Below, one piece after another: positions 9,855 through 26,128 of a stretch of DNA of 63,883 bases; position 1 is the first letter of the stretch, and each line of letters begins with the position of its first letter. The notes under the pieces were generated by a model. That model saw nothing but the letters and a program-made list of their open reading frames with translations, made no database searches and was not told the DNA's origin. Both the position numbers and the translations under genes were made by a program. The DNA is taken from positions 1-63,883 of the forward strand of contig JAZNAO010000023.1 in the NCBI GenBank assembly GCA_045586565.1. The letters are read 5' to 3'. This DNA comes from Candidatus Enterousia sp. (GTDB lineage: Bacteria; Pseudomonadota; Alphaproteobacteria; Rs-D84).

Positions 9855-9857
9855 GAT

Positions 9858-10457: not shown

Positions 10458-10479
10458 AATATACAAGGGGTTAGGCAAT

Positions 10480-11754: not shown

Positions 11755-11756
11755 AC

Positions 11757-12452
11757 ATGAAAAATTATGCAGTTATATTAGCATCGGGTATTGGCAGTCG
11801 ATATGGGCAAGAATTGCCAAAACAATTTGTTGTGGTGGCTGGCAAAACAATACTGGAACATACATTGGATATATTTCAACAAGCCAATAATATTGATGAT
11901 ATTATTGTTGTCATTACCCCAGAATACAGATATTTGGGCAAACAAATATTATCAAAAAATAATTATTCTAAAGTGTCACAATTATTAAATGGGGGTGCCA
12001 CACGCAAGGATAGTTCTGGAATTGGGATATCCGCAATTACAGATAAAGAAGCAAATGTATTGATTCACGATTGTGCACGTCCTTTCTTGAGCCAACGCAT
12101 CATCGATGATTGTGTTTCTGCGTTGGAAAAATATAATGCTATTGATGTCGCAATTCCTGCAACAGATACAATTATTGAAACCAATGATGACTTTATTTCA
12201 AACATACCAAACCGTGCGCGATTAATGTGCGGGCAGACACCACAATGTTTTAAGCTGTCTTTGATTAAACATGCACATCAATTGGCACAAAACGATCAAA
12301 ACTTTACAGACGATTGCGGTTTAATCTTAAAGTATAACCTATCGCCGATATATATTGTTCGTGGGGATGCAGAAAACATAAAAATCACCTATCCCAGTGA
12401 TATATTTTTGGCAGAAAAAATATTCCAGTCCAGACACGCAAAATCGAAATAA
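11757..12452 (+). CDS. IspD/TarI-family cytidylyltransferase (probably polyol-phosphate, TarI-like)
   Basis: The AVILASGIGSRYGQELPKQF N-terminal nucleotide-binding motif and the 231 aa length fit the family. The position next to a TagF-like gene argues for a glycan role rather than the MEP pathway. Confidence 0.8.
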   Translation: MKNYAVILASGIGSRYGQELPKQFVVVAGKTILEHTLDIFQQANNIDDIIVVITPEYRYLGKQILSKNNYSKVSQLLNGGATRKDSSGIGISAITDKEANVLIHDCARPFLSQRIIDDCVSALEKYNAIDVAIPATDTIIETNDDFISNIPNRARLMCGQTPQCFKLSLIKHAHQLAQNDQNFTDDCGLILKYNLSPIYIVRGDAENIKITYPSDIFLAEKIFQSRHAKSK

Positions 12453-12465
12453 TATGCATATACAA

Positions 12466-12494
12466 ATCTGGGGCAAAATGCCCCAGATTATTTT
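12466..12494. terminator. hairpin terminator between convergent genes
   Basis: atctggggc-aaaat-gccccagat followed by tatttt. It overlaps the stop codon of the minus-strand gene. Confidence 0.6.
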
Positions 12495-12748
12495 ATAACG
12501 GCGCTTTTGATGATGTTCAGGTCTTCTTTGATATCGTCGATTTTTATCTGAATCTGGCCGATGCCGGTTTCCAGTATCGTGGTGCGGTTCTCTAGTGCCG
12601 TTATGCGGACGTCAACACGTTCCAATTCGGCAATGGAAAAGTCTTGACGTGCCGCCCAATATATCAGACCCGCAACAAACGCAATTAAAAACCAACTGTC
12701 GCGCAAGAAATCAATTATCCCCAACGCCGAAGATGTACGTGTTGTCAT
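12488..12748 (-). CDS. phage-cluster small membrane/coiled-coil protein (86 aa)
   Basis: One TM (FLIAFVAGLIYWAA) followed by a coiled-coil-like tail. It is the last gene of the phage-like cluster and is tightly packed after the preceding gene. Confidence 0.5.
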   Translation of the reverse strand: MTTRTSSALGIIDFLRDSWFLIAFVAGLIYWAARQDFSIAELERVDVRITALENRTTILETGIGQIQIKIDDIKEDLNIIKSAVIK

Positions 12749-12749
12749 G

Positions 12750-12950
12750 TTATTTGTCCCCTTGGCCCCGCACTATATGCGTTTCAATTTGTTGAACCAA
12801 TGCACGTTGGGCCGCATGCCAGCGCAACTGGGCATCTGTGGCGTTTGCCCCCAACGTGCGATTAAAAATCGTTTCACGCAGGTGTTTTAACACCATCGCA
12901 CCAGATGGCGTCGAAAAACAACGCGCGTAATTTATATCAATGTCTGGCAT
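12750..12950 (-). CDS. Bbp19-like small phage protein
   Basis: YARCFSTPSGAMVLKHLRE... resembles my memory of the Bbp19-like phage domain. The ATG lies 1 nt after the portal stop codon. Confidence 0.45.
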   Translation of the reverse strand: MPDIDINYARCFSTPSGAMVLKHLRETIFNRTLGANATDAQLRWHAAQRALVQQIETHIVRGQGDK

Positions 12951-12951
12951 C

Positions 12952-14181
12952 TTATTCCCCCAGGGCTGTTTCAATTGCAGACATTTGGGCAATCGGTGCA
13001 ATATATTTTAATTCTGCATCGCCGTTTAATGTAATCGGTTCAATTACCCCGCGACGTGACAATATTTGCAGGCCCCTGTCGCACAGTGGTCGAATAAATT
13101 CATGCAACAGACGACCATATGTCGCCCCCAATATCCGCATCATGTCTGCATTGCGTGCCATAATTTCTGTGGCGGTCATTTCTTTTTCAGACAGCAACCC
13201 CAATCTGTCCGCCAGTAATGCATGGCGTATACGTTCGCGCAGGTCTTTCAGCACCAACTGCGACACGTCAAAGTCCGCGCCACTGGCCAACGGTGTCAGC
13301 CCAGACGACCCAACCGCCTTTGGTATAATCGCCCCCGGTGTCAGGTTGATATTATTCAAGTTTATAACACCATCATCGTCGGCCTGCCAGATGCCAGATA
13401 CGGCAATCGTTGCGTTCTTTAGAACCAATTCAACAACCTTGTTCGCAGTTTTTATATCTGGCAGTGCACGCAAGACAGGTCCACGGCCATACAATTCGCC
13501 CGATGATACAGACCAACGAAATATAATATATGGATTTGTTTCAAATGTACCGTGCGACACAATGTTATTTTCAATATCACCACCGACATCCAACCATGCG
13601 GTAAATTCTGTGCCAACCAGACTCTGCACCAGTTTTAGTGGGGTATCTGGGTCTTGTTTTATCGTATCGCGCAGATTGGCCGGCGGGGTCCATGTCGGAT
13701 ATTTATCCATGACTTCGCGTGCCGGCATTGATGTTGTATGAAATACTGCATTTGGTAAAATCGCAATATCAGACATTGGTATCGCCGTAAATGTAAATGC
13801 AGATGATGCACCAATTGGGGATTCTGCCATAAACAAACACGCCGTCCCCAATACGACCAAGTCCATATAACACTGATGAATAACCGTATAAAAATTAGAA
13901 TCGTTCAAATTTGCACGTAATTTGGATGTGGCAAATTCTGCATCAGGCGACAAAATACTTTCTGGCACCAGTGTCAGCCACATTGATTCTGGTGGGGTCA
14001 ACAGTGTGTATATCGATGCCGCCAGATTATCTGCCGCGTCCATCGCCGTTGCATCAAATAATGTTGCCGCATCATCATCAGCAGTTGGCATGGTATATTT
14101 GCGGGCATTATCCCAACGGTTTAACCATGGTGCGCGCATATCCAGTGCGCGTTTATACAAACTTTGCAGGTTTTGTTGCAT
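12952..14181 (-). CDS. podovirus head-to-tail connector (portal), T7 gp8-like
   Basis: Aligns by eye to T7 gp8. LYKRALDMRAPW..KYTMP matches VYERLKNDRAPY..QYTIP, NLAASIYTLLTPPESMW matches NLASKLMLALFPMQTW, the YGRGP block is shared, and TATEIMARNADMMRILGATYGRLLHEF matches TAEEIRYVASELEDTLGGVYSILSQEL. At 409 aa it is shorter than T7 gp8. Confidence 0.82.
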   Translation of the reverse strand: MQQNLQSLYKRALDMRAPWLNRWDNARKYTMPTADDDAATLFDATAMDAADNLAASIYTLLTPPESMWLTLVPESILSPDAEFATSKLRANLNDSNFYTVIHQCYMDLVVLGTACLFMAESPIGASSAFTFTAIPMSDIAILPNAVFHTTSMPAREVMDKYPTWTPPANLRDTIKQDPDTPLKLVQSLVGTEFTAWLDVGGDIENNIVSHGTFETNPYIIFRWSVSSGELYGRGPVLRALPDIKTANKVVELVLKNATIAVSGIWQADDDGVINLNNINLTPGAIIPKAVGSSGLTPLASGADFDVSQLVLKDLRERIRHALLADRLGLLSEKEMTATEIMARNADMMRILGATYGRLLHEFIRPLCDRGLQILSRRGVIEPITLNGDAELKYIAPIAQMSAIETALGE

Positions 14182-14210
14182 AAGGTTTCTCCTTTTGTTG
14201 TGTGTTATCT

Positions 14211-15074
14211 TTAAAGTTTGAAATTTGTGTTTGCAGTAAAAGTCTTTATCGTGCCACCAATTGGACGGGTTGGGGTTGGAACCTGGGCAATCGCGCCGGC
14301 AACTGCGTCCAGGCCGTCATCATGCATTCCACGCGCCAATGGCGACCATCCCAACATTTCAGATAATAGTGGTGTATTTTGAACACGTGTATGTGCATGC
14401 AGGCGTCCCGTGCTTAGCACTGGTTCAATCGCGTCCAGGATTCTGTCGGCCTTGGCACGTGTGTTCGATATGCGATTGACATAAATGTTTATGCCACGTC
14501 GCGACGCGCAATCGCGCATAATTTCTGGCAGACCGCCACCAATGCCATTGGTTTCAATTGTAATTCTATGTAAATTTCGTGCATGCATAAAATCTAACAC
14601 CATATCACATTGGCGCGACAGTGGAAATTGTTCGTCGTCTGAAACCGTCAGATATAAAATATCGTGAATAAATATATGGCGCGATTTATCGTCACGATAT
14701 AATAGCACGCATGCACTGCCGTCACGATGTGCACGGCCACTGGACGGGTCCCAATATAAAACACTGCCCGTGATATGCGATGCGCCAATTGTCGCGTTAC
14801 GCGGTTCAAATTCATCGTCATAAAAATGCAGTGCACCAGGATCCAGCCGTGCGCGTTCAGGGGACACAAATTCCAGCATCATCTGGGCAGAAAAATGTCG
14901 ATGTCCCACTGTTTCGCGCATTTGTTCGATTTTTTCAATCGGGAAAAGTTCCGGCCACGCCGGATTTCCGCACGTGTCTATTATCGGAATCTTTAATAAT
15001 TTATATCCGCATAAAAAAGGCGTTGAAAAAGCAAAATTTTCATATACCATTGAACCAAAGAAGGAATTAGACAT
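14211..15074 (-). CDS. large terminase, C-terminal (nuclease) half of a split gene
   Basis: CGYKLLKIP matches T7 gp19 RGYTTIIWP. RNase-H-like nuclease motifs are present: VLYWDPSSG, ITIETNGIGGG, HDDGLDAVAGA. The ORF is open up to 15149, and an in-frame ATG at 15074 is preceded by GGGGG. Confidence 0.8.
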   Translation of the reverse strand: MSNSFFGSMVYENFAFSTPFLCGYKLLKIPIIDTCGNPAWPELFPIEKIEQMRETVGHRHFSAQMMLEFVSPERARLDPGALHFYDDEFEPRNATIGASHITGSVLYWDPSSGRAHRDGSACVLLYRDDKSRHIFIHDILYLTVSDDEQFPLSRQCDMVLDFMHARNLHRITIETNGIGGGLPEIMRDCASRRGINIYVNRISNTRAKADRILDAIEPVLSTGRLHAHTRVQNTPLLSEMLGWSPLARGMHDDGLDAVAGAIAQVPTPTRPIGGTIKTFTANTNFKL

Positions 15075-16638
15075 GGATTTTACCCCCAAAACATTACCAA
15101 CAAATCTGGAAGCCGAACAGGCCGTATTGGCCGCAGTATTGATGAACAATCGCGCATTGGAACGCGTGTCTGAATTCCTGCGGGCGGAACACTTTTCGCA
15201 TCCCGCACACCAAGAAATATTTAAACTGGCCGAACGTCAATTCGCGGCTGGAATACCGTTTGATATTATTACTGCCAAGAACTATCTGGACCAACAAGGC
15301 GTTCTGGAATCTGTCGGTGGTGTAGATTATCTGACGCAATTGTCTGGCGCAGGCGCAACTGTTGTTAACGTTGAACAATACGGTCGCATCGTTTATGAAC
15401 ATGCAATGCGTCGCGATTTAATTGTACTGGGCCAAGATATTACAGACAAAGCATTTATCGAAGACTTGGATAATCCTGTGGCACGCCAGATTGAATTGGC
15501 GGAACAGAAACTGTTCGACATGGCAACCGCAGGGTCCGCAGAACGTGAAGTGACATCCATTTCAACAGCGTTACAGGCGGCACTGGCCGAAGCAGAAATC
15601 GCATACAAGGCCGATGGACAATTGTCGGGCCTTACCACTGGGTTAAGCGCACTGGACAAGTCAATCAGTGGTCTGCATCATTCTGACCTGATTATTATCG
15701 CAGGACGTCCCGCAATGGGAAAGACTACGTTGGCCATGAACATCGCGTTTAATGCCGCAAACGCAATCGCATACAATCGCGCAAACAAAAATTATAAGGG
15801 CGCCGTTGTTTTCTTTAGTTTGGAAATGTCTGCATCACAGTTGGCAGCACGTGTATTATCGTCACAATCAAAAATTCCGGCATCTGCAATGCGCGAAGGA
15901 ACGCTGACGGACGAAGACTTCTTGAAAATGTCACAATATTCTGCCGCAATCAGCAAGGTGCCACTGTTTATTGATGATACACCGGGTATGTCTGTGCCAA
16001 TGATGCGCACGCGCGCGCGTCGTTTGGCGCGTAAACACGGTGGAATTGCATTGATTGTGATTGACTATCTGCAATTGATGACCGCCCCAGGTGGAAAACG
16101 CAGTGATAATCGTGTTCAAGAAATTTCTGAAATCACACGTGGTCTGAAAATGTTGGCCAAGGAACTGGATGTACCGGTTATCGCCCTGTCCCAGTTATCA
16201 CGCAGTGTCGAAGCACGCGATGATAAACGTCCACAGTTGGCAGATTTACGTGAATCGGGTTCTATTGAACAAGACGCCGACATTGTTATGTTTACGTATC
16301 GTGAAGAATACTATCTGCAAAATCGCGACCCGTCCGAAAGATTGTCCAATACAACCAACAGTGCAATGGTGGAAAGTTGGCAAAAACGATTGGAACGCGC
16401 ACGTGGCAAGGCAGATATCATCATAGGAAAAAACCGTCACGGACGCCCAGAAACAGTGCGTACGGCATTCTTTGGCGATTACAGTTTGTTTGATAACCTG
16501 GACGAATTCCAGGCACGCGGCGAAAATGAATTTGCGTCCCCTGCACCAACGATTTCTGCATCTGCGTTGGAACCAGACCCAAATTTTGAACCGACTGCAA
16601 TTGATGCCGATGCAATCCCAGATGATATGCCATTGTAA
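15073..16638 (+). CDS. dnaB: replicative DNA helicase DnaB with acidic C-terminal extension
   Basis: N-terminal domain LEAEQAVLAAVLMNN, Walker A GRPAMGKTT, IVIDYLQLM, SQLSR and QDADIV motifs. AAGGAA RBS precedes the ATG at 15073. About 45 extra acidic/Pro-rich residues follow the conserved FDN end. Confidence 0.9.
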   Translation: MDFTPKTLPTNLEAEQAVLAAVLMNNRALERVSEFLRAEHFSHPAHQEIFKLAERQFAAGIPFDIITAKNYLDQQGVLESVGGVDYLTQLSGAGATVVNVEQYGRIVYEHAMRRDLIVLGQDITDKAFIEDLDNPVARQIELAEQKLFDMATAGSAEREVTSISTALQAALAEAEIAYKADGQLSGLTTGLSALDKSISGLHHSDLIIIAGRPAMGKTTLAMNIAFNAANAIAYNRANKNYKGAVVFFSLEMSASQLAARVLSSQSKIPASAMREGTLTDEDFLKMSQYSAAISKVPLFIDDTPGMSVPMMRTRARRLARKHGGIALIVIDYLQLMTAPGGKRSDNRVQEISEITRGLKMLAKELDVPVIALSQLSRSVEARDDKRPQLADLRESGSIEQDADIVMFTYREEYYLQNRDPSERLSNTTNSAMVESWQKRLERARGKADIIIGKNRHGRPETVRTAFFGDYSLFDNLDEFQARGENEFASPAPTISASALEPDPNFEPTAIDADAIPDDMPL

Positions 16639-16707
16639 TTATTTGCTTGCGCGGGAATCAAAATTTGACTATTATTTTGTCAAGAATTAGTCATTAGGAG
16701 TTTTGCC

Positions 16708-17715
16708 ATGGCACAAGAAGAAATTATATTTCCAAATAACATTCGCAACATCCGCTTGGCTGCGGGAATGAAAATGACCGAATTGGCGCGTCGCACAGGG
16801 TTGTCTTTATCTGCAGTATCAAAGATTGAAAAGGGCGTTCGTCGTTTAAACCAGAAACAATTGCTGAATGTGTGCAATATCTTAGGGTGCAAATTATCAG
16901 ACATCTTTATCAAAGAATCTGATGATGTCGCCGACCAATGGCAAAACGAAATTAAACGCCGTATGACAGACAACGAAAACAACGGTCTGAAAATATTCGG
17001 CAGTGGTCTGCGCAAAATCCGCCAACAGGCCGGCAAAACAATCGCACGCGCCGCCAAAGAAGCCGGAATGACATTATCTGTATATCACAAGATAGAGGTT
17101 GGTCAACGCGAAATATATACCGATGAAATTGAACCCTTGGCAAAATCTTTCGCATTGAATGCAGAACAAATGTTCGAAAAAATCGCAAACTTATACAAAT
17201 CAGGCGAATTGACCAAACAAATGAACAAGGTCAAAGAACGTGTGCAATCTGTGTTGGAACCGGGCAACCCACTGTCGGGAATGAATATCGGCGGCGGATT
17301 GTTTGGTGCGAAATTATATGACAGTGCACGTAAAAAATTGGTGCCTGTATTTGGAACACCGTCAGGCAAAGCCATCGCATTCAAAAAATCTGACAAAACA
17401 ATGATTGTGGCACCAATGTCATTGGAAGGACGTCGTGATATTTACGCCGTCATGCCTAATTCAAAGCGTCTGGGCGGTGTTATACCTGAAAAATCTTATG
17501 TTTTGGCAGACGCATCTGTCCCCGCACAGGTTGGTGATATGGCCATATGTATTGATGCGCAATTTGAATCATTAGATACAGATACAAATGTTACCGCACA
17601 TGTCGCGATGGTCAAGCAAGATGCCAAAGGTAAATTATACGGTCAACTGGTTGGACCAGATGAAAAAATAACATATCAAACAATGCACAAAGTTATTATG
17701 ATTGTGATGGAATAA
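16708..17715 (+). CDS. tandem XRE-HTH regulator with S24/CI-like C-terminal domain
   Basis: Two HTH_XRE-like units (IRNIRLAAGMKMTELARRTGLSLSAVSKIEKG and LRKIRQQAGKTIARAAKEAGMTLSVYHKIEVG). The C-terminal beta-rich region resembles the LexA/CI S24 fold (VPVFG..., GDMAI). Confidence 0.65.
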   Translation: MAQEEIIFPNNIRNIRLAAGMKMTELARRTGLSLSAVSKIEKGVRRLNQKQLLNVCNILGCKLSDIFIKESDDVADQWQNEIKRRMTDNENNGLKIFGSGLRKIRQQAGKTIARAAKEAGMTLSVYHKIEVGQREIYTDEIEPLAKSFALNAEQMFEKIANLYKSGELTKQMNKVKERVQSVLEPGNPLSGMNIGGGLFGAKLYDSARKKLVPVFGTPSGKAIAFKKSDKTMIVAPMSLEGRRDIYAVMPNSKRLGGVIPEKSYVLADASVPAQVGDMAICIDAQFESLDTDTNVTAHVAMVKQDAKGKLYGQLVGPDEKITYQTMHKVIMIVME

Positions 17716-17737
17716 CAACCATATACGGAGAGAGATA

Positions 17738-18376
17738 ATGAAAGCCAAAGCCAGCGCAACCGCACAAAGACTGTTAAATCTGTACCGCCAAGAACATGTG
17801 ATTGTCGGCGGGTGGGCAGTAATCAATCCGATATTTGTTGCAGATGCGTCTGATGATGTTATCGCAGAATTGCGCGACAAACCGAACGGTAACACGTTGA
17901 TAAAACATATCGAGAATCTGCGCAGTGGTAAAACACCAATGGATTCAATTGAACGTGAGCTGTTACCATATGGTGGTATGATGACAGAAGAAATTGCATC
18001 TATTACGTTGACACCGGCACAATGGCAAGAATTGACACAGGGAATTGAAAACTTTACCCCAGATCAAGCAGGATTGGATGTATTTCAGGCTTTAAACGTT
18101 GTTCGCACATTTGGTGCGGAATGGCCCGTAGCAATTCGTGCTGCATTATCAGCGCGTCCACAATTACTGGACAAATGGAATGTTATAAACCAAACGTATA
18201 ATGCATATAGACTGTGGAATACAGCACACGAAGTTATCGCAAACCCATTGTCGGAACGTGTCCGCGCCCAGGTCCAAGCAGATATGCCAGAATATGAAAC
18301 ATACCTGCCGATGTTTGGAAACGCGGGGGCGGAACTGTTGACCAAATTACGAACATTTGTCAGCAGTTTAAACTAA
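17738..18376 (+). CDS. hypothetical protein (212 aa)
   Basis: Clean ORF with GGAGAGAG RBS. I recognise no family. Its stop codon overlaps the stop of the convergent terminase N-half. Confidence 0.55.
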   Translation: MKAKASATAQRLLNLYRQEHVIVGGWAVINPIFVADASDDVIAELRDKPNGNTLIKHIENLRSGKTPMDSIERELLPYGGMMTEEIASITLTPAQWQELTQGIENFTPDQAGLDVFQALNVVRTFGAEWPVAIRAALSARPQLLDKWNVINQTYNAYRLWNTAHEVIANPLSERVRAQVQADMPEYETYLPMFGNAGAELLTKLRTFVSSLN

Positions 18377-18990
18377 TCTAATTTGTTTGTGCGATATATC
18401 GTATCGTGCGTGTGTGGCGTTCCAATGTATATCATTGCACCAGATGGCGATAGTATAAAATCCAATTCACGCAACCTTTCCCGTAATGCCGCGCGTTTTT
18501 GTGCTGTGTTTGATGTATTTGGCACTTCGACATCATCGCATAATATTAAATCTGCGCGCATGCCTGTGATATTGCCATGAATCCCCTGACAAATAACAGA
18601 CGGTTCACGTATACCGATGGGGCGATTGATTGTAATACGCCCAGACGCCCATTCTTTTTTATTCTTTGGAATCATATCTGTGCACCATGGATGATTTTCC
18701 AAAATATGCCGAATATGCCCAACCATACGGGTGGCCAAACCGTTTTCAGCTGATAAAATCAATATCCGTGTTTGGGGACGCAGGTATAACACACATGCGG
18801 CAAAAATCCCAACCACTGTGGATTTCCCAGAATGACGAAATGCCATCAACAAACCACGCCCCGGTGCATCAGAAAATATTTCAACCAGAAATTTCATTAT
18901 TTGGTAATGATGTGTGGGCGTTTTAAATCCTAAGACACGATTCCATTGATCTAAAAAAGTATTAAATTGTGTAATCATATTATTCCACAA
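18373..18990 (-). CDS. large terminase, N-terminal (ATPase) half of a split gene
   Basis: Aligns to T7 gp19. LLMAFRHSGKST matches ILQAFRGIGKSF (Walker A), ILILSAE matches ILIVSAS, RADLILCDDVEVPNTSNT matches RADIIIADDVEIPSNSAT (Walker B), and IYIGTPHTHDTIY matches [13 protein letters not shown]. It stops 6 codons later. Confidence 0.85.
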   Translation of the reverse strand: MWNNMITQFNTFLDQWNRVLGFKTPTHHYQIMKFLVEIFSDAPGRGLLMAFRHSGKSTVVGIFAACVLYLRPQTRILILSAENGLATRMVGHIRHILENHPWCTDMIPKNKKEWASGRITINRPIGIREPSVICQGIHGNITGMRADLILCDDVEVPNTSNTAQKRAALRERLRELDFILSPSGAMIYIGTPHTHDTIYRTNKLD

Positions 18991-19327
18991 TATTATCTAA
19001 TCTGGACAGCAAAGATTTTAATAAATTAGGCTTTTTGACGCGTGTTCCTTTTAACTTTTTCAGATTTTCGGCACTCTTTTTCTGATAAGGCATTGCAGTT
19101 TCTGATTGCAAGCGTTTTAATACCGCACCTTCGGTAATACCATTGCCAGACATCCCAAAAGCACCATATTTTGCACGCTGGGTTGCCAAAACTTTTTTAA
19201 TCAGATTTGTTTTTTCGGCATTATCTGCGGCCATTTGTGCCAAGATTTCTTTGCGTTCTGATTTTGCCGCTTTTTTACTGTCTTTGTAATCCAATATTTC
19301 TGTTACATCTGATACTAATTGTCCCAT
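18980..19327 (-). CDS. hypothetical phage protein (116 aa), possible small terminase by position only
   Basis: AAGGAAA RBS. Lys-rich and helical. Its 3' end overlaps the terL-N start by 11 nt. No family recognised. Confidence 0.45.
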   Translation of the reverse strand: MGQLVSDVTEILDYKDSKKAAKSERKEILAQMAADNAEKTNLIKKVLATQRAKYGAFGMSGNGITEGAVLKRLQSETAMPYQKKSAENLKKLKGTRVKKPNLLKSLLSRLDNIVE

Positions 19328-19355
19328 TTGTTTTCCTTTTTTTTGATTAAAAATG

Positions 19356-21071
19356 CTATACAGAATACCAACCATGCACACCAACAGATAAAACAGTCAA
19401 AGGATATGGTTCGTTGCTGTCAATTGTCCAGGTTGGCATAGAACAGTTTGATTGCGTCCCCAAAATATTTATTGATACATCGCCAGAAAAACCTGGGGAC
19501 GATATATCGTAAACATCATTGGGCAACGTAACACGTTTCCCATTTATATTTATAAACTTTGTGTTCATAATACGGGCAACAATACGATGTAATTTGATGT
19601 ATCGTGGAATATGACCTGACGCAATCATTGGAATGCCTGATGCGACACATGTGAAATCATATTTATCTGCATCACGCATTGTATCTGAATCAAAGTATTC
19701 CAAGAATATACCATCTGACCGATGGACAACAACATACGTCTGGTCATTGGATATACCAACTGAAATAAACTGACCATTGGTAGAATATCTTGCCCACGCA
19801 GAAATCCCCAGCGGAGAATTCTGATTCAGAACTGCCATATTGCCATCCATACCCACAACGTATAAACGACATAATGTATCATTATATGCAATATCCATCG
19901 GTGTATTCAGTATATGTTTCGCAAATGCGCACAAATCATTGGCATTATATTTTTCACCCAAATCATCTAAACCCAGTTCACGAATATCACGACCGTTTGA
20001 CGACACAAATATTGTTGCGCCTTTGATAGTCTGGGGTGGCAGATATCGTGACGAATACGATCCAACAGATGTATGTTGCCGTATATCAACATTCGATGGG
20101 GTTAAAGGCTTGCTGGATATTGCCCATTCACCGACATTTGTTAGTATTTGCAGATTATCACTGCTGACCACGGTACAGATTTGTTGACGATGTTGCGATA
20201 ATAATGAAACAAAAATCGCTTCGTCGTCCAAACCTGTCCCTGGGGCAAATGTAGTATGTTTCCCAACCTGGGATATCCATATACCAGACGGGTAATCACG
20301 TGACCCACCAAATATCAGTCGGTTTTGATGAAACGTTATACTGCGTGGCCAACCACGACGTGCGCTGAACGCTGCTTCTTGCCAATCGCTTATGGGTTCT
20401 GACGGTGTTTTATATGAACTATTTGTATGTGCAACAACCTGGGTCGGATTGATGTATTCTGTAATAACCCACTGTTGTTCCAATAAATACAATCGTGTGT
20501 TTACATTTTCTGGGGTCCAAAAATTCTGGTTGGTTGTTAGTGTGGCAAAATTATTGCCTTTGTCATTTATTGTAACTGTAATAGTTATTCCATCAGTATC
20601 TTCAAATTTCACAAATGGTATATTTGATGTCATATCATTGTCATTACGCGAAAAGTCAAAATCTGACATGCAGAACCCCTGTGACGTCTTGGACAAACAG
20701 ACAGGTCTGTAATCAGGGTGAACAAATATCATTGTTCCAAAACGTTGTGCGTATTGCAGATTCGACAAATCATCATATGACCATGGTGTGATTAAATCCT
20801 GGTATTTTTCATTGTCGTAATATATATACATATGATAATTAGTTAGGGCAATTAAATATTCTGTGCCATCAGATACAGACATAGAAATCAAGCGGGCATT
20901 ACCAGGTAATCGCGCCACTGATTTTAGGCCGCAACGCCGTGTTATACCCCCACCTGCTAAAACATCCATATTTTCTAGTTTTGACAAACCGTGTATATTA
21001 TCGTTTGTATAAAATTCTGGCGCAATTTCACCAGATGCAAATGTATTTTGCGTTTTAATAAAGTTAGACAT
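19356..21071 (-). CDS. tail tubular protein B (T7 gp12-like nozzle)
   Basis: The N-terminal SGEIAPEF...LENMDVLAGGGITRRCG resembles gp12 GGISQQPD...vNGwss..eGLQKRPP. ITFHQNRLIFGGS..GIWISQ matches gp12 VFFFRNRLGFLSGENIILSR. At 572 aa it is shorter than T7 gp12. Confidence 0.68.
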   Translation of the reverse strand: MSNFIKTQNTFASGEIAPEFYTNDNIHGLSKLENMDVLAGGGITRRCGLKSVARLPGNARLISMSVSDGTEYLIALTNYHMYIYYDNEKYQDLITPWSYDDLSNLQYAQRFGTMIFVHPDYRPVCLSKTSQGFCMSDFDFSRNDNDMTSNIPFVKFEDTDGITITVTINDKGNNFATLTTNQNFWTPENVNTRLYLLEQQWVITEYINPTQVVAHTNSSYKTPSEPISDWQEAAFSARRGWPRSITFHQNRLIFGGSRDYPSGIWISQVGKHTTFAPGTGLDDEAIFVSLLSQHRQQICTVVSSDNLQILTNVGEWAISSKPLTPSNVDIRQHTSVGSYSSRYLPPQTIKGATIFVSSNGRDIRELGLDDLGEKYNANDLCAFAKHILNTPMDIAYNDTLCRLYVVGMDGNMAVLNQNSPLGISAWARYSTNGQFISVGISNDQTYVVVHRSDGIFLEYFDSDTMRDADKYDFTCVASGIPMIASGHIPRYIKLHRIVARIMNTKFININGKRVTLPNDVYDISSPGFSGDVSINILGTQSNCSMPTWTIDSNEPYPLTVLSVGVHGWYSV

Positions 21072-21088
21072 TGCAAATCCCCCAGAAA

Positions 21089-21607
21089 TTAAAATCGATT
21101 GGTAATCAATGAAAAATCTTGCAATGCATCTGATGCAGATGTTGTACTGTCTATGAATTTGGCCGTTTGCAGTTCTGATTCGAACAGGGCCGCCAACATA
21201 CGAAACACCGATTGATTCCCGGTTAGAGGGATACAAAATTCCATTGCCAAACGTGTGGCAACCAACGATACAAAATATCCAGGGAACGCATCTGGCGATG
21301 TTCGAACTAATGCAGTAATTGTTATATCTGATGCATCTGAAATAATACGATTACCAATAATGCGACCATGTGTTTTTAATACACGTAAAACATTTGATGG
21401 AATCAGAAAATCACCATCAGCATTGCGCATCAGCGAAATTTCTTGGGTCGCAAAACGCCATGGATGTAGTGATAACAATGTATCTGTTACAGAATCATAC
21501 AATGTTCGTGCCAATTGTGACGTGGCAGAATCATCCGTAAAAGACTGAATTGGTGATTCCCCCAATTTTAACAATGCCATTGAACATAAATCTATCTTGG
21601 AAAGCAT
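21089..21607 (-). CDS. tail tubular protein A / adaptor (T7 gp11-like)
   Basis: CSMALLKLGESPIQSFTDDSATSQLARTLYDSVTDTLLSLHPWRFA parallels T7 gp11 [46 protein letters not shown]. Size is similar at 172 aa. Confidence 0.68.
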   Translation of the reverse strand: MLSKIDLCSMALLKLGESPIQSFTDDSATSQLARTLYDSVTDTLLSLHPWRFATQEISLMRNADGDFLIPSNVLRVLKTHGRIIGNRIISDASDITITALVRTSPDAFPGYFVSLVATRLAMEFCIPLTGNQSVFRMLAALFESELQTAKFIDSTTSASDALQDFSLITNRF

Positions 21608-21628
21608 TTTTGCACCTTTTGGTTATAT

Positions 21629-21661
21629 AAAAAAATTTGGGCGACAAAACATATCGCCCAA
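21629..21661 (-). terminator. rho-independent terminator after the capsid/76-aa unit
   Basis: On the minus strand: ttgggcga-tatgttttg-tcgcccaa followed by a T7 run. This is analogous to the T7 T-phi position downstream of the capsid gene. Confidence 0.7.
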
Positions 21662-21678
21662 TTATGAATTCGAATAAT

Positions 21679-21909
21679 TTATGCCAACGCAACGGTTGTA
21701 ACATTTAATTCTGTGATATTGATTTTTTTTATCGCAGTATTATCAGATGCATTCATTATAATAATATCGCCAATATTCATCAATGTTTTAACGTCATTAA
21801 AATATCCATTGGATGTAATTGTTGACAATGTTTCATTTGCACTGTAATGCCACAATGTAAATCCATTCGCATATGCGATAACAGACAAATTTTTATTCTG
21901 GAATGCCAT
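21679..21909 (-). CDS. small phage protein (76 aa) downstream of capsid
   Basis: Intact ORF with an AAGGAAAAA-type RBS, 40 nt after the capsid stop. No family recognised. Confidence 0.5.
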   Translation of the reverse strand: MAFQNKNLSVIAYANGFTLWHYSANETLSTITSNGYFNDVKTLMNIGDIIIMNASDNTAIKKINITELNVTTVALA

Positions 21910-21949
21910 GTGTTTTTCCTTTTGGTTTATGGGTTATTTAAATTGTGAT

Positions 21950-22771
21950 TTATTGTGCATCAGAACATTTGACACGAACAATACCATCACCATCAATCAA
22001 AACAGCGCCTTGGGACATACTGTTGCTGATAAAGTGTGCAGCACGTTCACCATGCCATGAAATATCTGTTTTGACTTCTTGGCCACATGCGTGACCAATA
22101 CTGGACGCGTGATAAATAAAGCAATCGCGTTTGTCGCCATCTGATGGCAAACCGTTGTACAGAACCCATGTGATACCCAACCATTTGCGGGCTTCGGCAC
22201 CGTTTAACAAAGGCAACGAATCACCAACATAATCAGCAGATACAAATTCGTCCATTGATAACAATTCATTCCATTGACGCACACCAACAACCGCAAAACG
22301 TCGACCGTCGTCCGGAACATCGTTTGTGTTTAAAACTTCTAATGCAGACAGAACCAAATCTTTGGTCATACCTGTGCTGTAATCACCAACTGTGGCAGTC
22401 GCAGCATTCATTGCAGACACAATCAATTCATCTGTTTTGCGTCCCAACGCATATGCGCCGGCAGATGCAACAACGCGACGTTCATCAACGTTTGTTTTTA
22501 ATTCGTCCAACGCATCAACCCAATCGCCCGCATAGTAATCCTGTAACAGGCATTCTACGGGTTCGTGATTTAGATTCATCACCGGAACAATACCGTGACG
22601 TGATTTTGTGCTGGCCATGCCACGACCAACCTTTTGGAAAGTGGTCGACGCACCAACAACACCAGATTTACTGCGAATTGTCGAACGCAGTTTTGTGCCC
22701 ATTTGCTGATATGCCAAATGAACATCGGCTTCGAATTGTTTCACAAATACATTATCTATGGAAACAGACAT
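21950..22771 (-). CDS. major capsid protein (T7 gp10-like)
   Basis: VFVKQFEADVHLAYQQ...TFQKVGRG parallels gp10 LFLKVFGGEVLTAFAR...QFPVLGRT. It follows the scaffold gene. AAAGGA RBS precedes the Met at 22771, so the ORF-track start at 22846 is probably too long. Confidence 0.72.
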   Translation of the reverse strand: MSVSIDNVFVKQFEADVHLAYQQMGTKLRSTIRSKSGVVGASTTFQKVGRGMASTKSRHGIVPVMNLNHEPVECLLQDYYAGDWVDALDELKTNVDERRVVASAGAYALGRKTDELIVSAMNAATATVGDYSTGMTKDLVLSALEVLNTNDVPDDGRRFAVVGVRQWNELLSMDEFVSADYVGDSLPLLNGAEARKWLGITWVLYNGLPSDGDKRDCFIYHASSIGHACGQEVKTDISWHGERAAHFISNSMSQGAVLIDGDGIVRVKCSDAQ

Positions 22772-22902
22772 ATAAAAATCCTTTGGTTTACAAATTGATA
22801 TTGATGTGAAAAACACATCACCAAATTTTGTGTTTTGGTTATGCATATAAAATGCGCCATAAATACAAAAAAAAATTTAGGGTCCGAATAATTCGGATTA
22901 TC

Positions 22903-22974
22903 CAAAAAAAATATCAGTCAGACTGTATATATCATCTGACTGATACTTTTAAAAATCCCCGCGAATGCGGGGAT
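22903..22974 (-). terminator. tandem rho-independent terminators after the Lys-rich gene
   Basis: On the minus strand: atccccgc-attc-gcggggat + tttt (22974..22947). Then an 11-bp-arm hairpin tatcagtcaga-N12-tctgactgata followed by T8 (22945..22903). Confidence 0.65.
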
Positions 22975-22978
22975 TATA

Positions 22979-23425
22979 TTATTTTTTCTTTACTGCTTTT
23001 TTTGCCGGTGCTTTTTTTGCAACTGGTTTTTTAACCGCTGCTTTTTTTGCCGGTGCTTTTTTTGCAACTGGTTTTTTAACCGCTACTTTCTTTGCAGGTG
23101 CTTTTTTTGCAACTGGTTTTTTAACAGCTACTTTCTTTGCAGGTGCTTTTTTTGCAACTGGTTTTTTTACCGCTACTTTTTTTGCAGGGGCTTTTTTTGC
23201 AACCGGTTTTTTTACCGCTACTTTTTTTGCAGGTGCTTTTTTTGCAACCGGTTTTTTAACCGCTACTTTTTTCGCTGCAGGTTTTGCAACAGGTTTCGCA
23301 GCCGCTTTCTTGGCAGGGGCTTTTTTTGCAACCGGTTTTTTAACCGCTACTTTTTTCGCTGCAGGTTTTGCAACAGGTTTCGCAGCCGCTTTCTTGGCAG
23401 CAGATTTTTTAAACAAGAATGCCAT
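22979..23425 (-). CDS. histone H1-like Lys/Ala/Pro-repeat basic protein (148 aa)
   Basis: Sequence [12 protein letters not shown]([28 protein letters not shown])n. AAGGAGAG RBS, with its own promoter and terminators. The + strand ORF 22965..23444 is its mirror artefact. Confidence 0.8.
22990..23400. repeat. in-frame tandem repeats (45-bp unit x ~5, 84-bp unit x 2)
   Basis: ctttctttgcaggtgctttttttgcaactggttttttaacagcta-type 45-bp unit (= [15 protein letters not shown]). An 84-bp unit is repeated at 23261 and 23345. Confidence 0.85.
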
Positions 23426-23482
23426 TCTTTCTCTCCTTACTTAAGTTTTGGATAGAACAAATCCGTTTTGTTCTTGATATGT

Positions 23483-23511
23483 ATTTTATCGTAAATACAA
23501 AACTTAGTAAA
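23483..23511 (-). promoter_or_regulatory. candidate promoter of the Lys-rich gene
   Basis: On the minus strand: TTTACT, 17 nt spacer, TAAAAT. Lies in the gap between the scaffold stop and the Lys-rich gene. Confidence 0.45.
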
Positions 23512-23531
23512 GTAGAAAGTGTATTTTTTTA

Positions 23532-24188
23532 TTACGAATATAATTTTTTAAAACCATTTTCTATTTTTCGAATGTATTCTGTATCTTTGTCACGCCAATA
23601 TTTTGGGTCACGCATCATACGACGCAAATCTGCATCTGTTAAATTTTTTATGTCAACAGAATTTATTTCAACACTGGGTTCCATTGACTGCATCATCTTA
23701 TACACACTTTGAATTCCCTGGGGTGTAGCGCACAAAGCATCAAATGCATCTTGTGGTAAAAATTTTTCACCGAATGTATTTATTGCATTTAATGCATCTG
23801 TCATTTTTTCATTACCACCAAAAAAATTTTTTAATTCATTTATTGCATTTGTTTCATTTTGTACGGAATATAATTCAGATATCACAGGAGATAAAAATTC
23901 ATTTGCAATATCATAAATTTTTTCAACCTGGGATACAGTTAATCCAATTTCTAAAAATTTATCACGCAACTTTTCATCATTATATAATTCGTGTGTTGGA
24001 TATTCCGATGCATTTTCTGGAACACCAATTGCACGATTAAATTTTCGACGCGTATCTGCATCAGAATCAGCACCTGGAACAGATATCATTGTGCCAATCT
24101 TTTTTTCTAGTTCTGTATACGATTTTACTAATGCATCTGCATTTAACGTGCCATCACTGTTTTGAAATTTTTCTGGTATATTATCCAT
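23532..24188 (-). CDS. capsid scaffolding protein (T7 gp9-like)
   Basis: The C-terminal LRRMMRDPKYWRDKDTEYIRKIENGF matches T7 gp9 MIKAMSDPRYRTDANYRRQVEQKV. Acidic, helical protein sitting just upstream of the capsid gene. Confidence 0.78.
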   Translation of the reverse strand: MDNIPEKFQNSDGTLNADALVKSYTELEKKIGTMISVPGADSDADTRRKFNRAIGVPENASEYPTHELYNDEKLRDKFLEIGLTVSQVEKIYDIANEFLSPVISELYSVQNETNAINELKNFFGGNEKMTDALNAINTFGEKFLPQDAFDALCATPQGIQSVYKMMQSMEPSVEINSVDIKNLTDADLRRMMRDPKYWRDKDTEYIRKIENGFKKLYS

Positions 24189-24379
24189 TATTGTTTTCCT
24201 TTGGTTTCATTAGATTTGCGTAAAAAATAAATTCCAGCCAACGTAAATATTGTTTGCAACATAGTGAATATATCTGTATCACCCACCAGGTATGCCGCCA
24301 CTGCAGATAATATCCCTGTCGCAGAAATTATATATGTTCTGTATCCGGTCAGATATCCACCCTTGATTATTCTTTTCAT
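24188..24379 (-). CDS. holin-like two-TM small protein (63 aa)
   Basis: Two hydrophobic helices and a charged C-terminus (RKSNETKGKQ). Lies between the lysin and scaffold genes, with ATG overlapping the scaffold start region. Confidence 0.5.
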   Translation of the reverse strand: MKRIIKGGYLTGYRTYIISATGILSAVAAYLVGDTDIFTMLQTIFTLAGIYFLRKSNETKGKQ

Positions 24380-24388
24380 GTTGATTAC

Positions 24389-24799
24389 CTATCTGTAAAA
24401 CAATACGCCATCAATATCTGCAATATAACCACGTGCAGTTGCCCAATCTGGTATAACATCATCATTATGAAAACGCGTTGCGCCGAAACATACATCTGGC
24501 AAATTTCCTGTCAACATACGTTGGGCGGTACGTACACACATTTGAAAACCACGATCATTTGCAGGAACATTTAATTTGATGTGGTTTGTAGCGTTATCAG
24601 ATAATACATCAAAAATTTTAATATCTTGTATAATATCTTTATAGGCGACATTATATGTTTTGGATATATTATCAATCATTGATGTCATTGCTTCGACCAG
24701 ATGCAGTGATGCACCACCTGTCTGTGCATATACAACACGTGCAATTTTATATGCCAACGATGCGGATGTATCCGAATTTTTGATAAGTGTCATTTGCAT
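24389..24799 (-). CDS. SleB/CwlJ-family cell wall hydrolase (lysin)
   Basis: ARVVYAQTGGASL...AMTSMIDN...GATRFHNDDVIPDWA resembles the Hydrolase_2 (SleB) pattern. GGGAGAG RBS precedes the Met at 24799. Confidence 0.6.
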   Translation of the reverse strand: MQMTLIKNSDTSASLAYKIARVVYAQTGGASLHLVEAMTSMIDNISKTYNVAYKDIIQDIKIFDVLSDNATNHIKLNVPANDRGFQMCVRTAQRMLTGNLPDVCFGATRFHNDDVIPDWATARGYIADIDGVLFYR

Positions 24800-24816
24800 G
24801 ATTATCTCTCCCAAAC

Positions 24817-24867
24817 AAAAAACCACGCAAATGCGTGGCAATAAAAAAACCACAACCAATGTTGTGG
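24817..24867 (-). terminator. two tandem rho-independent terminators
   Basis: On the minus strand: ccacaacattggttgtgg + T7 (24867..24843), and ccacgcatttgcgtgg + T6 (24838..24817). Both lie downstream of birA and immediately upstream of the lysin RBS. Confidence 0.75.
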
Positions 24868-24894
24868 ACAGTATTTGTGCTGTTGATGCATTAT

Positions 24895-24923
24895 ATATTA
24901 GCACATTTGTATACAAAAGTCAA
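24895..24923 (-). promoter_or_regulatory. sigma70-like promoter upstream of the tandem terminators
   Basis: On the minus strand: TTGACT (24923..24918), 17 nt spacer, TAATAT (24900..24895). Confidence 0.5.
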
Positions 24924-24958
24924 GAACAAAATGCATAAACCGCAGTTTTTCAATATTT

Positions 24959-25639
24959 TTAAACACTTATTTCATCACCGTATACCAGTAAATATCGTGA
25001 ACCGCGCCGCAATACCAACGCACCATTTTCATTTATGCCAATCAGTTCTGCCAATTCACCTTGATATTTTACAGGCCGATCCAAACACGATGCCAATTCT
25101 GTCCAGCGCGCACGCACCGCACGAAAATCTGTGCGACGCCATTTGTCGATATTGCGCATTAAGCGATTTAATAATTCATTCATCGGGATTTCAGAATAAT
25201 TATCCAGCTTTGTAGTCTTATACCGATCAACGGTTGGATTAGAATTTACATTTATACCAATCCCAACAATTACAAAATTTCCAGAATATTCAATCAATGT
25301 CCCAGATACTTTCTTATTATCAATCAAGATATCATTTGGCCATTTAATTGTGGGATGCACCCCAAATGACGCAATTGTATCCGCAATCGCCACAGCAATT
25401 GCATACGATAAGCGTGCATCACGTTCAGGACAATCGAATATAAAACTGATGTATAAATTACCGTGGTGCGATACCCAGGTGCGACGGAAACGTCCACGTC
25501 CCGCAGATTGGGCCGCCGCCAAAATCGCTGTATGATCACTGGCCCGCCCAGATGCAATCAATTCATGTGCGTAATCTTGGGTGCTGGGGATTTTATCAAA
25601 AGATAATAATTTATAATTTGCCAAGACTGTATACCCCAT
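24959..25639 (-). CDS. birA: biotin--[acetyl-CoA-carboxylase] ligase
   Basis: QSAGRGRFRRTWVS (GRGRxGR-type motif), KWPNDI, and a C-terminal SH3-like tail. No N-terminal HTH, so it is a group I ligase. The start is uncertain (25639 or upstream). Confidence 0.85.
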   Translation of the reverse strand: MGYTVLANYKLLSFDKIPSTQDYAHELIASGRASDHTAILAAAQSAGRGRFRRTWVSHHGNLYISFIFDCPERDARLSYAIAVAIADTIASFGVHPTIKWPNDILIDNKKVSGTLIEYSGNFVIVGIGINVNSNPTVDRYKTTKLDNYSEIPMNELLNRLMRNIDKWRRTDFRAVRARWTELASCLDRPVKYQGELAELIGINENGALVLRRGSRYLLVYGDEISV

Positions 25640-26030
25640 TTGTGTTTTTAATAAATCCACGGCCATATTTCTGGCGTAGTTGATAAATCGCGGCATCCAT
25701 CGCATGCGTTGCAACATCTGGCGCATATCCCAACGCAGTTTTTAACTGGGCAATGGTCATTCCGTTACTTTTATACAGTAATGCCACTATTTTACCTTGA
25801 ATATATGGCAGTGTAACATTTTCACCAAATACTGCAAATAAAACATCTGTATTATCCAACGCGCCCAAAATAAGTGATTTTAAATCCAATGGTGAAATAT
25901 TGTCTGAAACATCCAAATCATCAAAATTGATATCACCAGGTGTCGGAACGTTCAAAACAGTCGCGCCCAAATCGGCCAAGATTTGCCGCCATATGTCGTC
26001 TGATGCATATATACGAATGCCTGATAACAT
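25611..26030 (-). CDS. atypical OmpR-type winged-helix protein with half-size receiver-like N-terminus
   Basis: The C-terminal THAMDAAIYQLRQKYGRGFIKNTNGVYSLG resembles trans_reg_C (vdvhI..LRkK....I.Tv.G.GY.l). The N-terminal IRIYASDDIWRQILADLGATV looks receiver-like but is only about 60 aa. Confidence 0.5.
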   Translation of the reverse strand: MLSGIRIYASDDIWRQILADLGATVLNVPTPGDINFDDLDVSDNISPLDLKSLILGALDNTDVLFAVFGENVTLPYIQGKIVALLYKSNGMTIAQLKTALGYAPDVATHAMDAAIYQLRQKYGRGFIKNTNGVYSLGKL

Positions 26031-26066
26031 GTGTGAATATTAGTCCATAGTTAGTCAATTGTCCAA

Positions 26067-26103
26067 TAAAAAACCACAAAGCGGTTAAACTTTGTGGTTT
26101 TTT
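26067..26103. terminator. bidirectional hairpin terminator
   Basis: A run, then ccacaaag-N8-ctttgtgg, then T6. Confidence 0.65.
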
Positions 26104-26128
26104 GGGGTGTCGAAACCTGAAAAAAGCG

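Follow-up and report, generated by a model that had tools for sequence, protein, structure and literature searches.

A 63,883-nucleotide contig of Candidatus Enterousia (JAZNAO010000023.1; the whole stretch is referred to here as the window) carries, at positions 12488-24916 on the minus strand, a cluster of T7-type structural and packaging genes together with lysis genes, recognized by profile hidden Markov models (HMMs) with E-values down to 1E-82. The cluster spans approximately 12.4 kb, or about 1.3% of the host genome. It is a conserved element of podovirus origin that has been domesticated and, apparently, has not been described before. Two features of its design are unusual: the gene of its large terminase (terL) is divided into two open reading frames (ORFs), TerL-N and TerL-C, and a 3.2-kb block of plus-strand genes, among them the replicative helicase gene dnaB, lies between the halves. 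We regard it as very probable that the locus is a selected, functional and domesticated element. More specifically, and with a probability of roughly 65%, we interpret it as a vertically inherited derivative of a T7-like podovirus that is kept by selection in Ca. Enterousia as a particle factory resembling a gene transfer agent (GTA). Three of the properties expected of a GTA are found here: phage-derived structural, packaging and lysis genes on the host chromosome; vertical inheritance with purifying selection; and an apparent inability to propagate itself, as neither the locus nor the scanned ORFs of the window include an integrase, an excisionase or a replication module of the element. Packaging of random host DNA and its delivery to recipient cells are predicted.

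Families were assigned using the profile HMMs of Pfam, PHROG and NCBIfam. The initial annotation of this DNA, made by eye, had recognized T7-type gp9, gp10, gp11, gp12, gp19 and portal proteins, and the HMMs reproduce all of these identities; its SleB-like lysin, holin-like protein and Bbp19-like protein are supported as well (phrog_938, hydropathy and PF25181, respectively). It had, however, counted eleven minus-strand genes where there are 14, and had described these as co-oriented, making no mention of the three plus-strand genes inside terL. For several genes the real start lies downstream of the longest-ORF start, giving a capsid protein of approximately 274 amino acids (aa), a gp12 of 571 aa, a lysin of 136 aa and a TerL-C of 279 aa. 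The features of the locus are listed below, where dN/dS is the ratio of nonsynonymous to synonymous divergence.

12465-12489: terminator-like palindromic hairpin where the cluster ends distally, in the gap from the TarI-like gene to the 86-aa ORF (11-pair stem, 6 GC pairs)
12488-12748, minus strand: 86-aa protein encoded by the final gene of the cluster, predicted to have a transmembrane segment near its N-terminus and a coiled coil (weak phrog_736, hydropathy; 61-84% identity in relatives, dN/dS 0.14)
12750-12950, minus strand: Bbp19-like small phage protein, 66 aa (PF25181, 5E-11; conserved, dN/dS 0.23)
12952-14181, minus strand: T7-type portal (head-to-tail connector), 409 aa (PF12236, 3E-82; 68 orthologues at 82-95% identity, dN/dS 0.075)
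14211-15050, minus strand: TerL-C, 279 aa (phrog_38, 2E-33; PF22530, T7 RNaseH-like; dN/dS 0.17)
15073-16638, plus strand: dnaB, host-type replicative DNA helicase, 521 aa (NF006606 equivalog; dN/dS 0.06)
16708-17715, plus strand: regulator of 335 aa with two helix-turn-helix (HTH) domains of XRE/Cro type (HTH_3, 2.5E-20, two stretches)
17738-18376, plus strand: all-helical protein of 212 aa (from its AlphaFold2 [AF2] model)
18373-18978, minus strand: TerL-N, 201 aa, Rossmann core of the terminase ATPase (phrog_38, 1E-40; dN/dS 0.10)
18980-19327, minus strand: basic coiled-coil protein, 115 aa (present in 81 loci, dN/dS 0.18)
19356-21071, minus strand: gp12-like tail tubular protein B (nozzle), 571 aa (phrog_376, 3E-81; dN/dS 0.175)
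21089-21607, minus strand: gp11-like tail tubular protein A (adaptor), 172 aa (PF17212 / phrog_394, 3E-31; dN/dS 0.18)
21637-21661, minus strand: terminator-like hairpin 3' of the capsid and 76-aa genes
21679-21909, minus strand: conserved phage protein, 76 aa (phrog_18004, 1E-12; dN/dS 0.06)
21950-22771, minus strand: major capsid protein, approximately 274 aa (PF19821, 3E-70; dN/dS 0.06)
22979-23425, minus strand: Lys/Ala/Pro/Val-rich repeat protein resembling histone H1 and HC2, 148 aa, 39% lysine (PF07382 HC2, 1E-21)
23532-24188, minus strand: T7 gp9-type scaffolding protein, 218 aa (PF05396, T7 capsid assembly, 7E-10; dN/dS 0.19)
24188-24379, minus strand: holin-like protein, 63 aa, with two hydrophobic segments (hydropathy; 69 loci, dN/dS 0.13)
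24389-24799, minus strand: SleB/Hydrolase_2-like cell-wall hydrolase (lysin), 136 aa (PF07486, 2E-5; dN/dS 0.29)
24959-26374, minus strand: conserved flank of birA, a 139-aa ORF and an 81-aa ORF (synteny in all loci)

The strongest evidence for domestication comes from related genomes. We searched every protein of the window by tblastn against 84 related loci. In every locus with enough flanking sequence the complete gene set is present, in the same order and beside birA, across about 80 species-level Enterousia genomes; species counts are approximate, since the metagenome-assembled genome (MAG) RGIG4147 gives three cluster copies on three contigs (L015, L035, L076), its bin probably being a mix of several Enterousia strains. 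By the Nei-Gojobori method, applied to all pairs with a synonymous divergence (dS) below 1.5, the phage-derived genes have dN/dS values between 0.06 and 0.29, compared with 0.14 for the host gene birA and 0.06 for dnaB. Because most pairs are near synonymous saturation, the calculation was repeated on close pairs (dS 0.13-0.40), for which the pooled dN/dS is 0.034-0.071 in the 13 phage-derived genes versus 0.036-0.049 in dnaB, birA and other host genes. The cluster genes are under strong purifying selection, at the level of host genes.

The pairwise protein distances of capsid, portal and terL also follow those of birA and dnaB (Spearman 0.49-0.79; dnaB versus birA, 0.71). The exception is gp12, whose correlation with host genes is 0.35 and in which no hypervariable segment is evident; the weak correlation may reflect recombination or shifted constraint, and the divergence would gain interest should receptor contact have passed to the nozzle. 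Synonymous divergence is reduced in the capsid and scaffold genes, which would be compatible with codon selection for high expression, as is reported for genes of the Rhodobacter capsulatus GTA (RcGTA) type (PMC9765227).

A scan of species-representative genomes gives 289 matching stretches. The best 80 of these all come from gut MAGs (ruminant, chicken, rabbit and human) that carry the label Candidatus Enterousia or Alphaproteobacteria. Database clusters 85-93% identical to the capsid number more than 120, their contigs reaching 1.06 Mb, and the same architecture is found on chromosomes of 0.96-1.04 Mb. In the order Rs-D84, which includes Enterousia, genomes are mostly below 1 Mb, fermentative and streamlined (81-94% coding), and pseudogenes do not accumulate; the host seemingly has no standard sugar, amino-acid or peptide transporters and may rely on partners (PMC12306168).

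The split of terL, which the initial annotation had noticed as a bisected gene, is real; it is conserved, and the catalytic motifs are invariant. TerL-N covers positions 273-459 of phrog_38 and TerL-C positions 483-708. TerL-N aligns to residues 54-214 of T7 gp19 and holds the Walker A, Walker B and C-motifs, and the fused N+C sequence aligns in one piece (residues 5-459) to unsplit phage TerLs. In the alignment with unsplit relatives the cut falls in a short, length-variable loop between a GTPHTxxxIY block, which directly follows the ATPase C-motif, and a PFLxGYxxLxIP block; it lies approximately 10 residues past the C-motif, and no residues are missing at the junction. No variation is seen in the Walker A, Walker B and C-motifs of TerL-N (79 species) or in the three acidic nuclease residues (D/E/D) of TerL-C (72 species). 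AF2 predicts the RNase H-like nuclease domain of TerL-C confidently, and its best match in the PDB is the terminase of the T7-like phage PhiV-1 (8dgc_E, 7E-11). Besides the nuclease, TerL-C appears to carry the last strand and the lid of the ATPase domain, a placement that leans partly on general terminase architecture; function would therefore need both chains to fold together. The terL split is a conserved design. Many stand-alone TerL-C proteins of approximately 270-300 aa, at 35-45% identity, occur beside unsplit forms of 460-570 aa among the 1.8 billion representatives searched.

Several other ways of accounting for the two halves were tried and rejected. A group I or II intron, or another RNA element that would join them, has no Rfam match at E-values up to 1 in window positions 12000-26500 or in two related loci with a split terL (L138 and L140). 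A split intein is contradicted by the alignment with unsplit TerLs, in which the halves abut with zero extra residues. Excision of the dnaB cassette to restore terL finds neither a recombinase gene nor a convincing junction repeat; the best repeat near the junction is weak (24 nt, 71%) and lies well within the flanking genes. Finally, the 402-aa protein P0391, a TerL-C homologue 86% identical to that of the window, was considered as a natural fusion of both halves and is actually an internal duplication of TerL-C: approximately 120 residues of the nuclease domain are repeated in tandem, as an assembly artefact or in reality.

Between the terL halves lie dnaB, the regulator with two HTH domains and the 212-aa protein. 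The DnaB protein scores 614 bits on NF006606 (cut-off 540) and falls below the cut-off of the phage_DnaB model TIGR03600; it is therefore of host type. It is found at the nested site in all 74 loci covering that site and is as conserved as any gene of the locus. The geometry is tight: only 22 bp separate the start codons of dnaB and TerL-C, which lie on opposite strands, and the stop of the 212-aa gene overlaps the TerL-N stop by 4 bp in convergent orientation. Given this nesting, a minus-strand transcript from TerL-N to TerL-C and the portal must run antisense across all three genes. The 335-aa regulator is 75-84% identical in 76 loci (dN/dS 0.08), and its C-terminal domain has no recognized fold. 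The 212-aa protein has no Pfam, PHROG or NCBIfam match; its all-helical AF2 model is of medium confidence (mean predicted local distance difference test score, pLDDT, 77) and has no fold match in the PDB, and among the matches listed those homologues that are named are exclusively Alphaproteobacteria MAG proteins. In one divergent lineage (L136) dnaB and a different gene of 834 aa lie between the terL halves.

More distant relatives suggest how this arrangement arose. The split itself predates the insertion of dnaB: three loci (L138, L140 and L158) have a two-ORF terL with a spacer of 0.2-0.5 kb and no dnaB. The capsid of L138 and L140 is 65-68% identical to that of the window, and their terL is cut in exactly the same loop; the L140 spacer is AT-rich, and L158 has the same two-ORF layout with a short spacer. 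Unsplit terL genes are found in L139, L142, L148, L150 and L151. Across the split and unsplit relatives without dnaB the capsid identity is 59-68%, with L142, L148, L150 and L151 at about 59%. These four follow the T7 order (portal, Bbp19, scaffold, capsid, gp11, gp12), and their gp12-terL interval holds a gene for an internal virion protein (phrog_418 in L150, the locus for which this is shown) and one for a fibre of 650-760 aa with a gp17-like N-terminal domain. The initial annotation had already pointed out that in the window the portal comes after the terminase, a permutation relative to T7; this is so, and the same holds for L140, with its split terL and no dnaB. The gene order of the window amounts to a circular permutation from which the core and early arc have been deleted.

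Two further observations concern these relatives. Beside TerL-C, on its 3' side, some loci encode one or two proteins of approximately 150 aa with a prepilin-like hydrophobic N-terminus (L140, 10341-11267; L136, 10850-11317); they precede the portal in L140 and are missing from the window. In the phage collection the nearest entry is MT838907.1, an unannotated 5-kb "Bacteriophage sp." from human faeces in T7 order, with a capsid 64% and a portal 41% identical. In addition, many of the 10-12-kb "viral genomes" of IMG/VR (L085-L135) are pieces cut from this chromosomal locus, beginning precisely with the capsid gene, and those examined (L134, L135) include the host dnaB. They illustrate how domesticated elements come to be catalogued as viruses.

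The fibre has undergone a stepwise reduction. The initial annotation had described the cluster as lacking a fibre, which is correct for the window; in 80 of the 128 related loci, however, an intact stub of 182 aa is kept, in which a short helical part adjoins the gp17 N-terminal domain for attachment to the tail. It is cleanly missing in the other 48, the window included, where its site is a 4-bp gap. A neighbour-joining tree indicates that the stub is ancestral and was lost at least six times. Counterparts of the core and ejection proteins gp14-16 were not found in the locus; between gp12 and TerL-N there is only the 115-aa protein, which occupies the site of the internal virion protein of the relatives (phrog_418 there in L150) and to which a single weak tblastn hit links it. 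Its assignment as a counterpart of that protein is based on position. No RNA polymerase, DNA polymerase or primase-helicase is found in the locus or among the scanned window ORFs, and the sole helicase is the host-type DnaB. What was gained is a Lys-rich ORF of 72-188 aa (approximately 36% lysine), which most of the examined Enterousia-type loci have between their scaffold and capsid genes and which relatives with an unsplit terL do not have. In the window this gene consists of 8.2 copies of a 45-bp unit, forming a tandem repeat at 22996-23356.

A few assignments in the list need comment. The Hydrolase_2 score of the lysin is under the Pfam cut-off (25.5 versus 27 bits), and the endolysin family phrog_938 supports it; a homologue of the gp12-like protein carries the annotation PF25675 Phage_nozzle. 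Our guess for the 86-aa protein is a spanin or lysis accessory. The hairpin at 21637-21661 is in a position that we take to be analogous to T-phi of T7, downstream of gene 10, and a further terminator-like hairpin lies between the Lys-rich gene and the capsid gene.

How does the locus compare with known systems? It matches the morphogenesis module of a T7-like virus (portal, scaffold, capsid, gp11, gp12 and large terminase), and its terL is of the type found in T7-like podoviruses. The closest cultured phage is the Pelagibacter phage EXVC031P Hodr (capsid 43%, portal 32-38% identity), which shares the portal, scaffold, capsid, 76-aa protein, gp11 and gp12 in equal relative order. Hodr, in contrast, is a replicating phage of 34 kb that has, after gp12, proteins of 783 and 1247 aa presumed from their position to be core or ejection proteins, and in addition a fibre and about 40 other genes; the Enterousia locus keeps approximately 12 kb and none of these. 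As it has neither polymerases nor core proteins nor a fibre, the locus is no T7-like virus. It is not a capsid-forming phage-inducible chromosomal island (cf-PICI) either, although it resembles these in being chromosomal, in encoding capsid, portal and terminase, and in missing part of the virion. The cf-PICIs have an integrase, att sites and their own replication and regulation genes, are not known to have tail genes, and move horizontally; in the Enterousia locus no integrase or att site was found, tail-tube genes are present, inheritance is vertical and the position is fixed. The Bartonella GTA (BaGTA), compared here by description only, is likewise a domesticated phage element of host-associated Alphaproteobacteria that co-diverges with its host. 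It is tied to a phage-derived run-off replication origin, whereas the replication link of the Enterousia element is a chromosomal helicase gene inside terL.

RcGTA offers a parallel in organization: a phage-derived cluster of head, tail, terminase and lysis genes fixed in an alphaproteobacterial chromosome, inherited vertically under purifying selection and without integrase or replication genes, with reported signs of codon selection in its structural genes (PMC9765227). The locus is nevertheless not of the RcGTA type. The head of RcGTA is of HK97 type and its tail long, as in siphoviruses, whereas family assignment places the Enterousia parts in T7/podovirus families; because of these T7-type parts it would be a domestication independent of RcGTA. 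It differs further in its split terL with the nested dnaB and in a head that is probably big enough for the locus. A podovirus-like GTA, FpGTA, was reported from Faecalibacterium prausnitzii in Nature Communications in 2026 (PMC12946183). The suggestion in the initial annotation that a podovirus-type GTA would be unusual is thus overtaken for the class, while for this lineage and for the split terminase we have seen no precedent, as far as the available text of that report goes. Both are GTA-like elements of gut bacteria, and the morphology of FpGTA is described there as most likely podovirus-like. FpGTA differs in having two loci, a baseplate, a tail fibre and a receptor-binding protein, and in its Firmicute host; its packaging is shown experimentally; and in the available text, on which this comparison by description is based, a split terminase or nested dnaB is not described (PMC12946183). 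In the literature we found no description of the Enterousia element, of a terminase split in this way or of a dnaB nested in one. The class of podovirus-like GTAs is therefore already known, and the Enterousia lineage, the split terminase and the nested dnaB are apparently new.

The initial annotation had posed the alternative of a domesticated element or a frozen remnant and had proposed sister-genome synteny and dN/dS to decide; with the cluster intact in about 80 species and dN/dS far below 1, the comparison favours domestication. A frozen or decaying prophage, persisting through delayed deletion or shielded by the essential dnaB inside it, would fit the interrupted terL and the integrase, replication genes, core proteins and fibre that were not found, and large deletions would be lethal with an essential gene embedded in the region. 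Such shielding cannot, however, account for purifying selection at the protein level. The 13 phage-derived genes are intact in spite of near-saturated synonymous divergence, their dN/dS of 0.03-0.29 resembles that of host genes, the catalytic residues of the terminase are invariant, and the hosts are streamlined organisms below 1 Mb in which pseudogenes do not build up (81-94% coding; PMC12306168). Intact syntenic orthologues with host-like dN/dS lead us to reject the remnant as highly improbable. A still-mobile element, either an active temperate podovirus or a satellite resembling cf-PICIs that borrows the fibres, ejection and replication of a helper, draws support from the many loci listed as viral contigs in IMG/VR, from the existence of related elements with full fibre and unsplit terL (L142-L151) and from the poor tracking of host genes by gp12, which could be recombination. 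The IMG/VR contigs are excerpts containing the same host dnaB, though, and mobility sits badly with the rest of the evidence: birA is always the neighbour and dnaB always nested, the locus co-diverges with host genes, and helper-phage genes are not found in the window. An ordinary inducible prophage at this locus is likewise rejected, given its intact fixed synteny and the lack of an integrase, repeat or tRNA. As the initial annotation had stated, there is no tRNA or att repeat at the edges (the closest tRNA is at 32930, and no direct repeat of at least 11 bp is common to both); among approximately 75 scanned ORFs of the 64-kb window we found no integrase, no polymerase and no other phage-like gene, structural genes included, which bears out its report that integrase and polymerases are missing and likewise answers, for the window, its concern that the missing genes might belong to an inducible prophage elsewhere. 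We consider continued mobility improbable.

The main rival accepts domestication and differs only in the purpose of the particles. The locus could serve in interference with podoviruses by poisoning their assembly or packaging, in programmed lysis with release of DNA, or in delivery of cargo to a partner organism. Its best arguments are that the fibre stub was lost repeatedly and that ejection proteins are absent; the lineage-specific gain of a Lys-rich, DNA-binding-like protein and a host without standard transporters that may depend on partners (PMC12306168) also point this way. We think this possible, if rather unlikely, since the production of DNA-filled particles is the simplest reason for keeping a full set of head, tail, terminase and lysis genes in which the ATPase and nuclease residues do not vary; no signature of a defence system was seen, though none was specifically sought.

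Several points weigh against interpreting the locus as a GTA-like particle factory. GTA function is predicted from the genes, as are particles, their cargo and the transfer of DNA. No small terminase, receptor-binding protein or ejection protein was identified in the locus, and repeated loss of the stub fits classical adsorption and delivery poorly. The whole 12.4-kb locus could fit into a T7-size head, unlike that of RcGTA. The split lies within the ATPase fold and not between domains; reconstitution is a plausible prediction, and the first approximately 67 residues of TerL-C are of low confidence when AF2 models this chain alone. The nested dnaB is presumed to be essential, its single-copy status in the genome being assumed. 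The operon and antisense model is drawn from gene geometry, with promoter-like sites at chance level: sigma-70-like sites are not above shuffled expectation (52 versus 46 ± 8).

How might a GTA-like particle factory work with these parts? The retained genes, a complete head-assembly set, a short tail (gp11 adaptor and gp12 nozzle), a large terminase and a lysis pair, would serve to build procapsids, fill them with DNA, seal them with a short tail and lyse the cell; the functions lost would be replication, integration, recognition of the element's own DNA and, apparently, adsorption and ejection in the manner of T7. A fraction of cells would express the minus-strand cluster. The hairpins after the capsid and 76-aa genes and between the Lys-rich and capsid genes may tune stoichiometry, the former yielding an excess of scaffold and capsid as T-phi does in T7. 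Procapsids would assemble on the portal, and TerL-N and TerL-C would rejoin by fragment complementation. With no recognizable sequence-specific small terminase, host DNA would be packed non-specifically; gp11 and gp12 would then seal the head, and the cell would lyse. The HC2-like Lys-rich protein, a gain of this lineage, may bind or condense DNA.

It is tempting to speculate that the nesting acts as an interlock of chromosome replication against particle production, because read-through of the particle operon would go antisense over dnaB and the regulator. Once fired, the operon would shut down replication and the regulator, either through antisense transcription or because the transcribing polymerases collide, and ongoing dnaB transcription would block read-through to TerL-C and the portal. 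In bacteria below 1 Mb that probably depend on partners, the particles would supply recombination against genome decay. In its full form, as an undescribed and independently domesticated T7-type GTA with a two-polypeptide terminase, an antisense interlock of dnaB and regulator, and recombination that offsets genome decay, we hold this proposal to be decidedly doubtful.

The surroundings of the cluster are of interest in themselves. The gaps of 35-160 bp to the TarI-like gene and birA that had been read from the sequence stand: 35 bp on the TarI side, and 42-160 bp to birA depending on the choice of lysin start. In all loci compared, birA, the 139-aa ORF and the 81-aa ORF adjoin the lysin side, and the rest of the surroundings vary by species. 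The 81-aa ORF is 85-99% identical between species (dN/dS 0.04), and a homologue of 53% identity lies beside the distant relative L151; by eye it looks HTH-like, resembling alphaproteobacterial phage-type repressors, and is possibly a regulator. The 139-aa ORF (within 25611-26374) overlaps the birA start; its end looks by eye like the winged-helix N-terminal domain of a class II BirA, and it may be a detached repressor domain. Neither ORF has a Pfam or NCBIfam match. A block of 14 kb that has the 81-aa and 86-aa ORFs as its end genes is inverted relative to bamA...UPF0102 when the window (3408-26374) is compared with L001 (1-20284) and also with L002; in L003 the neighbours of the block are tRNA U5-methyltransferase, an outer-membrane protein (OMP) beta-barrel and LpxI, which in the window are 25 kb away (50917-54192). 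The block relocates and inverts as a single unit amid reshuffled surroundings.

On the other side, between the cluster and the bamA-UPF0102 block, there is a low-GC block (8748-12452; 35-39% versus about 43%) that encodes a family-2 glycosyltransferase, a hexapeptide acyltransferase, a 424-aa protein without a Pfam match and the IspD/TarI-like cytidylyltransferase. The TarI-like protein has no tblastn match in any of the 84 related loci, and the block therefore looks like a strain-specific, horizontally acquired surface-polysaccharide cassette. Further away, at 33187-39297, five large ORFs (181-568 aa) lie beside a tRNA-Arg in a region of strongly skewed composition (AT skew to -0.24, GC skew to +0.19). 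None of the five has a PHROG match, and the Pfam scan, made for four of them, gives one weak, sub-threshold OMP beta-barrel match; they are possibly lineage-specific envelope proteins.

To our knowledge only a handful of independent phage-to-GTA domestications are known, and none was podovirus-like until 2026. If our interpretation is true, the element adds a T7-type lineage fixed across a genus or order of uncultured, genome-reduced gut Alphaproteobacteria. Its benefit must be strong if organisms that have shed most of their metabolism still devote about 1.3% of their genome to it. The extant relatives lay out a series of domestication, from full fibre and unsplit terL to a split with a short spacer, to a nested dnaB, to a fibre stub and finally to no fibre. 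A terminase naturally split inside its ATPase fold should be useful for understanding motor assembly, and a presumed essential replication gene lying antisense within a packaging gene may provide a switch between replication and particle production.

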